Source: a virus
Lineage: Duplodnaviria > Heunggongvirae > Uroviricota > Caudoviricetes
IMG/VR virus record: IMGVR_UViG_2700989521_000009
Direction: 5' to 3' (one strand)
DNA: 35,161 bases
Shown here: positions 27,001 to 30,000 of the stretch, piece by piece
Layout: each line of letters starts with the position of its first letter
Numbering within the stretch: the stretch's first letter is position 1
Program-made: the position numbers

Positions 27001-30000
27001 TCACTTTTTCGCTGGCCTGTTGTACCGTTGCCGCTGCACTGCGCAGGGTGAACGGTAAAGAAAAACCGCCTGCAGCCAGCGCCAGAGAACCTATCGCTGT
27101 TGATTTAACGTGTGTTCTGCGGCTGATGCCCACCATTCGGTCATTTTTGGACATAACTCACTCCCTGTTCTTTATCGTTATATAAATGTTTATGTATTGA
27201 ATATTTAGCGCGCTAACAATAGAGGGGGTCTACCCATTTTGGGTTGAGAATTATTAATCCACATCAATAGAAGGGTATGAGTAATAAGGTGGGATTATGT
27301 TGTATGTTCAAATCGCCGGATATGTCATATCCGGCGTTCAGTCGATAATGTATTACTGCGGTTCGGCAGGCGCGCCATCCTGGGTAGACTGCGCGGGAGC
27401 AGAGACGTTAGCGCTGGTGGTGCGGGTGTAGAGAATTTTATGCGTATCATTAGCACAATGCCCGACGACCTGGGAATCAGGCTGATCAACCTGGTCATTG
27501 GGTACAATACTTAATGTGAAGCTGCTTTCGGGTACGCCATTATTGATAATGCGCTGTGATATATCGCTCTGTATGCGCTCACAGGATCCCGGCGCGGCGA
27601 GTACCGCGGGTGAGGCGAGGGCGAGCAGAAGCGCGGCACAGCAGGTTGAGAGTTTCATCATAAGCTCCTTACGCGAAGATAACTTCTTTAAGCATAGCAT
27701 TTAACGTGTAAAGTACTGTATTTGCTACTATGATTGAGAATCATCTCTACTCTCTGGTGACTGTTGTGAAATACAAATTACTACCATGCTTACTCGCGAT
27801 ATTCCTCACAGGATGTGACCGCACAGAGGTAACACTTTCATTTACCCCTGAGATGGCCAGTTTCTCTAATGAATTCGATTTTGATCCGCTGCGTGGTCCG
27901 GTAAAAGATTTCACTCAGACATTAATGGATGAGCAAGGTGAAGTGACGAAACGTGTTTCTGGGACTTTGTCGGAAGAAGGCTGTTTTGATTCACTCGAAT
28001 TACTGGATCTGGAAAATAATACCGTGGTCGCTCTGGTACTGGACGCCAATTATTACCGTGATGCCGAGACGCTGGAGAAGAGAGTACGTTTACAGGGAAA
28101 ATGCCAGCTAGCAGAATTACCTTCTGCCGGGGTGAGTTGGGAAACCGATGATAATGGTTTCCAGATTGACTTTATCCTCACTAAAGGATAAAACTGATAA
28201 TATCCCCTTAAGCGGATAAATTTGCTGTGGACGTATGACATGATGAGCTTTCAGAAGATAGCGGTCGAACGTTTTGACAGGCGTTGGAATACTGAGCGAA
28301 CGGTTTTACTTCGCTTGCCACAGGAGGATATGTGTCAGACATTCGGTTTACCTTCATCTGTGAAATATGAATCAGATGGAGGCCCAGGCATCGCGCGGAT
28401 CATGGCGTTTTTGATGGGGTCCAGCGAGGCGCTTCGCGATCGTTATGATTTTATGAAATTCCAGGTCTTCCAGTGGTTGATTGGCGCAACGGATGGCCAT
28501 GCAAAAAACTTCTCCGTATTTATTCAGGCTGGCGGCAGTTATCGACTCACGCCATTTTACGACATCATTTCAGCATTTCCGGTCCTTGGCGGTACGGGAA
28601 TACACATCAGCGATCTCAAACTGGCAATGGGGCTTAACGCATCCAAAGGCAAAAAAATGGCAATCGATAAAATTTATCCGCGACATTTTTTGGCGACAGC
28701 AACGGTGCTGAGATTCCCGGAAGTGCAGATGCATGAAATCCTAAGTGACTTTGCCAGAATGATTCCGGCAGCACTGGATAACGTGAAGACTTCATTACCG
28801 ACAGATTTTCCGGAGAACGTGGTGACGGCAGTTGAAACCAATGTGTTGAGGTTGCATGGACGGTTAAGCCGAGAATACGGTAGTAAGTGAGATATGGGGT
28901 TTGGTCGTTGTTAATGAGCAACCATGACCGCCAACGACTGGATTCTCCCTTGGTTTATGTTGGTGCGCATAATGTATATTATGTTAAATCATATCTGAGT
29001 GATGCGAAGTGCTTTTCTGGTAGTCGTTATTCGTTCAGGGTTCCAGAACTTAAGCCTCTCCTCTTTCATAATTGGCCTGTGCATGACGGATATAGGCTGG
29101 CTGGTATGCAGATTTGCCGTTTGCCGCATCTTCCCAGCGTTGAAGACTCAAGCTGGCAAACCGCGTGCAAATGAGCACGCCCTCTTTCCATCAACACTTC
29201 AGGCAGCTTGCGGGAATGAGTCCACTACGGTATCAGAAATGGGAAGTGGGTGTCTCTCTGATGCGTAATGGAAAAATACTGGCTACGGGAGAAAATGTCT
29301 CCCTAGGGACAGTAAATAAAAGCAAAGTATCTCTGGGTTTAAGCGCAACCTATGGACAAACAGGAAACAAGGTTGCAGCCGGAACCGTCCAGTCAGTCAT
29401 TGGTGTCACTTTTATCTATGAATAATTGTGATTTTGATCTTAGTCTATGCGCTCCATTCACGAAAATTGCGCGGATAATTATTTTGTGAAGGCTATTATC
29501 CTACACCTGTAAGAAAATCCGCGCACAATTGAAGCCAGAGTCTTATTTTTTATATTGAAAAATATGTTAATTTAAACACTATGAGAGATGATGCTTAACT
29601 TATCGTATTTAATCTATTGTTTAACGATAATAGATTAAAAATAGAAAGAGAGTAGTCCCCTACTCTTATATATCCATGTTGGCGATAATCCCTTTGTATG
29701 TACTGTGCATCATCGCTATTACAAATCCTAATAATTCATTTCCACACAGGATAAGTAGATGAAGAAAAAAATTGAATCCTACCAGGGTGCTGCAGGTGGT
29801 TGGGGTGCTGTTAAATCCGTAGCGAATGCAGTACGTAAGCAGATGGATATACGCCAGGATGTTATTGCCATGTTTGACATGAATAAGCCAGAGGGCTTTG
29901 ACTGTCCGGGTTGTGCATGGCCAGATCCTAAGCACAGTGCGTCATTCGACATTTGTGAAAACGGCGCAAAAGCAATCGCCTGGGAAGTCACGGATAAGCA

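Follow-up and report, generated by a model that had tools for sequence, protein, structure and literature searches.

A deletion scar free of insertion sequences joins truncated ynfC to the hipBA promoter region at the eroding speG locus of a Shiga toxin phage-carrying Shigella

Barbagallo et al. (2011, PLoS One 6:e27226) described a speG::IS911 arrangement, with IS600, lying beside hipA in Shigella boydii Sb227 and CDC 3083-94 (PMC3213128). In the same study, the locus was found to undergo "progressive erosion" in S. boydii, from a 365-bp deletion through a 1,446-bp deletion past the speG terminus to complete loss, and loss of speG was shown by experiment to be beneficial, as restoring the gene lowered both oxidative-stress resistance and macrophage survival. 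speG is counted among the canonical antivirulence losses of Shigella (PMC7373316), and a full lsr operon was lacking in all Shigella genomes surveyed (PMC3595036). Hawkey et al. (2020) noted how difficult it is to ascribe past deletions to insertion sequences (ISs) (PMC7373316). Here, we describe the 35,161-nt stretch of DNA held as IMG/VR virus record IMGVR_UViG_2700989521_000009 (referred to as the window, at its full length), in which a truncated ynfC gene is joined to the upstream region of hipBA, the genes of the HipA toxin and HipB antitoxin. We found that the window carries a real deletion scar: the locus lacks genes that span about 64 kb in E. coli, and the antivirulence gene speG is among them.

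The window was aligned to annotated segments of the E. coli K-12 MG1655 chromosome (1.58-1.67 Mb), the junctions were aligned base by base, and the open reading frames (ORFs) of window positions 27300-29400 were listed. The blastn alignment revealed that positions 22286-35101 were collinear with K-12 in reverse orientation, with gaps, and that the gene order from 22286 was a 5' stub of ynfG, followed by ynfF, ynfE, ynfD, nt 1-392 of ynfC and then the hipBA upstream region (Table 1). In particular, window 26476-28167 matched the K-12 5' part of ynfE, ynfD and ynfC. The start of ynfC is the K-12 GTG at 27766, the K-12 match ends at nt 392, in codon 131 (28157), and the frame is closed by a TAA at 28189-28191. 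The truncated YnfC protein matched only profile positions 1-134 of the 236 in Pfam UPF0257. An earlier note on this DNA had proposed that ynfC stops early and that hipA homology begins about 70 bp after its stop; both observations held, as no full-length ynfC was seen in the K-12 alignment and the measured distance was 68 bp. The same note had joined ynfC to a hipA fragment at a single junction within 28150-28261. Both genes are indeed truncated, but what directly follows the cut in ynfC is the hipBA promoter region and not hipA, and the cut in hipA belongs to a separate 938-bp deletion. Two junctions are present (A and B), and the spacer between them comprises the hipBA promoter region with two operators and hipB codons 1-7.

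Table 1. Coordinates of the features described in the window.
Feature	Position	Strand	Details or evidence
Stx1a-converting prophage POC-J13, right end	61..22285	+	100.0% identity to KJ603229.1 positions 40475-62699
ynfG 5' remnant (prophage integration gene)	22286-22370	-	K-12 alignment
ynfE frameshifting 136-bp deletion between TCACGACC direct repeats	26476..26486	.	common to all ten related Shigella loci
Truncated ynfC	27766..28191	+	native codons 1-132, 9 foreign codons, TAA; 141 aa vs 236 aa in K-12
Junction A, ynfC nt 392 (K-12 1657066) to hipBA upstream region (K-12 1592524)	28157..28158	.	base-level alignment
hipBA promoter/operator remnant, 82 nt upstream of hipB ATG	28158..28239	+	identity to intact hipBA alleles
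In-frame hipB'-'hipA fusion ORF, 216 aa = HipB 1-7 + HipA 232-440	28240..28890	+	base-level alignment, Pfam
Junction B, hipB nt 20 to hipA nt 692/693	28259..28260	.	938-bp internal deletion, in frame, 1-nt microhomology
Junction C, yneL pseudogene start to last ~187 nt of ydeQ	29239..29243	.	2-3 nt microhomology

Relative to K-12, the gap at junction A amounts to 64,542 bp. The K-12 map given in the earlier note was accurate: about 64 kb separate ynfC (1,656,747-1,657,457) from hipA/hipB (1,590,854-1,592,442), and this interval includes yneO, lsr, mar, Qin, rspAB and speG. In full, the gap holds yneO, lsrKRACDBFG, tam, uxaB, glsB, sad, marCRAB, eamA, dcp, ydfG, rspR, the 20.5-kb Qin prophage, rspAB, ynfAB, speG and the 3' 319 nt of ynfC. 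The blastn search found no speG sequence between ynfC and hipBA, and speG is thus absent from its native place beside ynfC. Microhomology at the junction was limited to one shared G plus a patchy G.TTC..GATT similarity. As the earlier note had remarked and the base-level alignment confirmed, the junction (28157/28158) and its surroundings are free of IS sequence, and in the window the junction lacks the IS that would mark an IS-mediated deletion.

An identical junction A was found in five assemblies, namely the window and the related loci L007, L012, L013 and L015; of these four loci, one lies on the closed 4.72-Mb chromosome CP026840.1 and three come from drafts. The junction was found in none of 5,426 complete E. 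coli genomes. The window derives from a draft contig that ends in an IS1 repeat, which could speak for an assembly chimera. However, the five assemblies are independent and include the closed chromosome, and the junction contains no repeat able to mislead an assembler. We therefore rejected a chimera, the chance of which we regard as negligible, on the grounds that junction A is identical in all five assemblies.

We compared junction A with sister loci, which were retrieved by exact match to the hipB'-'hipA fusion protein and mapped, at about 20 kb per locus, onto K-12. All ten related loci had junction B, junction C and the 136-bp ynfE deletion. Only 16 of the 5,475 columns in the alignment of the ten loci varied, from which we conclude that they form one recent clade. 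Five sisters (L006 and L008-L011) keep ynfC, either whole or split by IS2, together with a 3' remnant of speG (speG nt 151-561). In all five, speG was broken off at one and the same base (K-12 1656334), where it adjoined the left inverted repeat of IS911. In L008, the IS911 was complete (1,249 bp) and was flanked by ATG and GTG, which do not match, so that no target-site duplication was present; in L010, both IS911 terminal repeats were present. Beyond the IS911 of L008 and L010 lay a yneO fragment with an internal deletion, and in L009 and L011 the right end of IS911 and the yneO fragment had been lost. In L006, all that is left of IS911 is a stub of 49 bp from its left end (PSSQ01000003.1 9654-9703), with the speG remnant on one side and the hipBA upstream region on the other; this stub directly shows that a secondary deletion took away almost the entire element. 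Secondary deletions that erode or erase IS911 have thus occurred repeatedly at this locus. We also observed an IS2 in the ynfC of L006. The hip-side breakpoints of the sisters were located at K-12 1592954, 1592754 and 1592716 and that of the window at 1592524, all within 430 bp. The earlier note had spoken of the block as lost by this strain. However, ynfC/speG and hipA are neighbours throughout the clade, and the arrangement is a lineage trait, reported in S. boydii (PMC3213128), and not peculiar to the strain.

From these comparisons, we consider it probable that the scar arose by stepwise, IS911-mediated loss followed by secondary trimming, as part of reductive evolution in Shigella. In the first step, in the ancestor of the clade, an IS911-associated deletion would have run from the 5' end of speG to the middle of yneO and left the order speG'-IS911-'yneO-PhipBA. 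In the second step, in the window lineage, a deletion of about 2-2.6 kb by illegitimate recombination, with patchy microhomology only, would have removed the 3' half of ynfC, the speG remnant, IS911 and the yneO remnant, and produced the IS-free junction. An L008-like arrangement would require a deletion of about 2.6 kb to yield junction A, and that of L011 about 2.1 kb. The second step would thereby have erased the IS responsible for the original loss, and it is from the sister genomes that we infer an involvement of IS911 in the window lineage. The order of steps given here is the most likely one on the sequences compared. The large deletion proposed by the earlier note is accordingly upheld with a refinement: the block is absent from the locus, but the sister genomes indicate that it was probably not lost in one clean 64-kb event. 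The loss of speG would be the selected, pathoadaptive component of this history, in which spermidine accumulates and survival rises under oxidative stress and in macrophages.

Several points weigh against this history. The stepwise order is likely rather than proven, and the window lineage itself retains no informative DNA. Single-nucleotide polymorphisms (SNPs) were compared over some 22 kb of flanking sequence common to the loci, with extra E. coli outgroups, as a test of whether the window lineage nests among the sisters; only about 20 positions were informative, and they gave a three-way split between the L008-L011 clade, L006 and the window lineage. One site groups L006 with the window lineage (window 30430), but it has three states (T in E. 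coli, G and C) and cannot be polarised. Additionally, ascertainment accounts in part for the close grouping of breakpoints immediately before the fusion ORF, because the loci were retrieved via the intact fusion protein.

The SNP split also bears on the alternative that junction A is a single-step 64.5-kb deletion from ynfC to the hipBA upstream region, independent of the IS911 deletion of the sisters, since the window lineage could be the sister group of the IS911-bearing lineages. The clean junction, with its single nucleotide of shared sequence plus patchy microhomology and no IS remnant, would fit such an event. Nevertheless, a single step would need two independent large deletions in close relatives that differ at 16 columns in 5.5 kb, and both hip-side ends would have to fall within about 2 kb in a 64-kb interval. 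Every other sampled member of the clade is in the speG'::IS911 state, and secondary IS-erasing deletions were observed in L006, L009 and L011 and have been reported for S. boydii. A single-step origin is therefore rather unlikely in our view, and we retain the stepwise loss with later trimming as the preferred account.

We further considered whether the block had been moved rather than lost, with an IS911-mediated inversion or translocation carrying its 60-odd genes to another chromosomal site. ISs have rearranged Shigella chromosomes extensively (PMC7373316), and the lack of a target-site duplication around the sisters' IS911 fits any recombination between two ISs, inversion included. In contrast, the survey in which no Shigella genome had a full lsr operon (PMC3595036) and the Southern blots in which speG went undetected for some S. 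boydii strains (PMC3213128) argue against relocation, as does the internally deleted yneO of the sisters, which suggests decay. The literature searched held nothing directly relevant to a loss of lsr or mar specific to S. boydii or S. dysenteriae. Taken with the decayed state of yneO, the literature makes loss of the block the most likely outcome and relocation improbable.

Downstream of junction A, window 28157-28259 consisted of the hipBA upstream region and the first 20 nt of hipB, and it was 100% identical to E. coli 120899 (L001) and 97% identical to K-12. A motif search with the HipB operator consensus TATCC-N8-GGATA (PMC3920265) revealed two perfect operators, at 28173-28190 and 28201-28218, with 0 expected by chance. 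Of the four operators of a functional HipBA locus, the two distal ones of K-12 (O1 and O2) were removed by junction A. A TTGACT hexamer was present at 28164-28169 and a GATAAT hexamer at 28195-28200. The latter reads TATAAT upstream of hipB in K-12, and GATAAT was also found in E. coli with intact hipBA (L001); it thus represents a natural variant of the promoter region and not decay. The identity to intact hipBA alleles suggests that the promoter core has been retained. A generic scan of 27650-29300 for sigma-70 promoters and terminators, which did not call the hipBA promoter, speaks against this, and our assignment was made from the alleles and not from the scan.

Junction B fuses the start of hipB in frame to the 3' part of hipA. 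The HipB part of the product comprises codons 1-7 only (MMSFQKI), and with hipB reduced to nt 1-20 no cognate HipB antitoxin is encoded upstream; the earlier note's description of a toxin-domain remnant without an antitoxin beside it was therefore apt. The hipA homology begins at 28259/28260 and ends at the native stop (28888-28890), and this part showed 97% DNA identity to K-12 hipA codons 232-440. Catalytic D309 (28492-28494), N314 and the Mg-binding D332 (28561-28563) were present as fusion residues 85, 90 and 108. The kinase fold, in contrast, is incomplete: the N-terminal domain, the Ser150 loop and Lys181 all lie upstream of the breakpoint. The fusion protein aligned only to residues 229-440 of solved HipA structures and only to positions 65-211 of the 213 in the Pfam HipA_C profile, and the N-terminal HipA domain was not matched. 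S150 and the catalytic aspartates are required for the kinase activity and toxicity of HipA. Without the N-terminal domain, the Ser150 loop and Lys181, the fusion cannot be an active kinase, and the HipA fragment is, judged from its sequence, almost certainly an inert relic. A single deletion across hipB and the HipA N-terminus would be a viable route of module loss, since the toxin dies together with its antitoxin. Transcription of the fusion ORF may continue from the promoter core that remains, which would be unrepressed in the absence of HipB.

NCBI names the exact 216-aa protein "HipA family toxin [Shigella dysenteriae]", and two Shigella taxa are given for it in UniRef. The fusion protein was found on at least 89 contigs and the truncated YnfC ORF on 26. 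This wider spread suggests that junction B is older than junction A, with the reservation that one of the two ORFs may be annotated more readily than the other. As a single piece, junction B was found in none of the 5,426 complete E. coli genomes. Other internal hipBA deletions occur in E. coli (H92-H97; for example, NZ_CP076706.1 235981-236371 and NZ_CP097724.1 2406316-2406855), in which the gap between the hipB start and hipA nt ~692 is 50-470 bp and not 938 bp, and these spacings imply independent internal deletions. The 90% cluster of the fusion protein likewise contained many differently truncated HipA proteins of 89-262 aa. An in-frame hipB'-'hipA fusion was not found in the published work searched and is not described in PMC3213128, and the literature searched held nothing directly relevant on a described hipA pseudogene in Shigella.

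The fusion ORF is in frame, intact and identical in the ten loci, its promoter core and two operators are retained, and D309, N314 and D332 are in place. These features would suit a functional small protein kept by selection and made from a de-repressed hipBA promoter; a HipA C-domain without kinase activity might, for instance, serve as a regulator or decoy. However, an in-frame outcome is expected by chance in one case of three, and the identity among the loci reflects very recent common ancestry. Compared with the closest full-length E. coli allele, the fusion carried 0 synonymous and 2 non-synonymous changes. Moreover, finding the loci by exact protein match introduces an ascertainment bias, other S. 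boydii deletions extend into hipA (PMC3213128), and truncated HipA proteins are numerous in E. coli. On the substitution counts, the in-frame odds, the ascertainment and the published deletions that enter hipA, the ORF would be a neutral relic, and its maintenance by selection is very unlikely. A more specific form of the idea, in which a HipB(1-7)-HipA(232-440) protein, made constitutively from a promoter deprived of its repressor and two operators, has acquired a role, such as sequestering a HipA partner or substrate or modulating persistence, would explain why three independent upstream deletions spared the promoter; we give it equally little credence. The argument for selection from the clustered breakpoints was rejected, as the loci were ascertained via the intact fusion and published deletions enter hipA.

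Junction C is a third IS-free deletion junction, and junctions A, B and C all lie inside 1.1 kb. Compared with E. coli 2013C-3264, 6,786 bp of the yde (F9) fimbrial operon are missing at this junction, which was common to all ten related Shigella loci. Beyond it, ydeP (29759-32038) and ydeO are intact. We also observed several small lesions in the chromosomal part of the window: a 1-bp deletion in ynfF at 23950, a 1-bp insertion in safA at 32398, and a 4-bp deletion in ydeN at 34724-34726, which is specific to the window lineage. An IS1 terminus (35102-35161) closes the right end of the contig.

The window sequence was identical to contig LAIG01000142.1 of assembly GCA_001017215.1 (Shigella). 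The contig, the naming of the fusion protein, the prophage POC-J13 and the junctions not found in E. coli together place the host in a Shigella or enteroinvasive E. coli (EIEC) lineage, and the host is a Shiga toxin (Stx) phage-carrying Shigella of the S. dysenteriae/S. boydii clade that has the hipA remnant. The prophage is followed by a ynfG remnant, and ynfG is the published integration site of POC-J13 (PMC4193171). The chromosomal backbone was of the S. dysenteriae/S. boydii type, whereas POC-J13 was described in S. flexneri. Among the relatives with junction A, a prophage at ynfG was also present in L012, and ynfG was intact in L007, L013 and L015.

Taken together, the window is one more allele of the known erosion of the Shigella speG locus, and the phenomenon itself has been described before. 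It confirms the convergent loss of the antivirulence gene speG in Shigella, together with lsr, fimbrial and other E. coli functions, and in this respect adds little that is new. Its methodological point is that an IS-free junction can hide an IS-mediated history, which becomes visible only when close relatives are compared, and such hidden histories bear on estimates of the IS-driven share of gene loss in Shigella. For annotation, the 216-aa "HipA family toxin" of these genomes is best regarded as a pseudogene fusion and not as an orphan toxin.

Comparison with the S. boydii speG locus (PMC3213128) revealed the same order of speG 3' remnant, IS911 and hipA in the sister genomes, the same kind of secondary deletions between hipA and the IS/speG, up to complete loss of speG, and the same pathoadaptive rationale of spermidine accumulation. 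The two are similar but not identical: the window deletion goes 319 nt into ynfC and ends 82 nt before the hipB start codon, its breakpoints do not match the 365-bp or 1,446-bp deletions, and the host protein is named for Shigella dysenteriae. The locus also resembles the "black hole" deletions of Shigella (cadA, ompT, nadAB and speG), which are large deletions, in an IS-rich and decaying genome, of a region with a gene whose absence makes the bacterium more virulent or fitter in its host; the difference is that the junction in the window no longer carries an IS. Compared with K-12 HipBA, in which HipA is a Ser/Thr kinase, HipB is Cro-like and four operators are present, the remnant is orthologous and keeps its native stop codon, native upstream region and two native operators, whereas the module is destroyed and HipA residues 1-231 are gone. 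HipT of the tripartite HipBST system is likewise a HipA-family protein shortened at its N-terminus. HipT, however, has HipS as its partner and still possesses its Gly-rich ATP-binding loop and an entire kinase core. We considered a HipT-like short kinase and rejected it for lack of the ATP-binding loop: the window fragment begins downstream of the Gly-rich loop, has no partner gene and is a truncation product.

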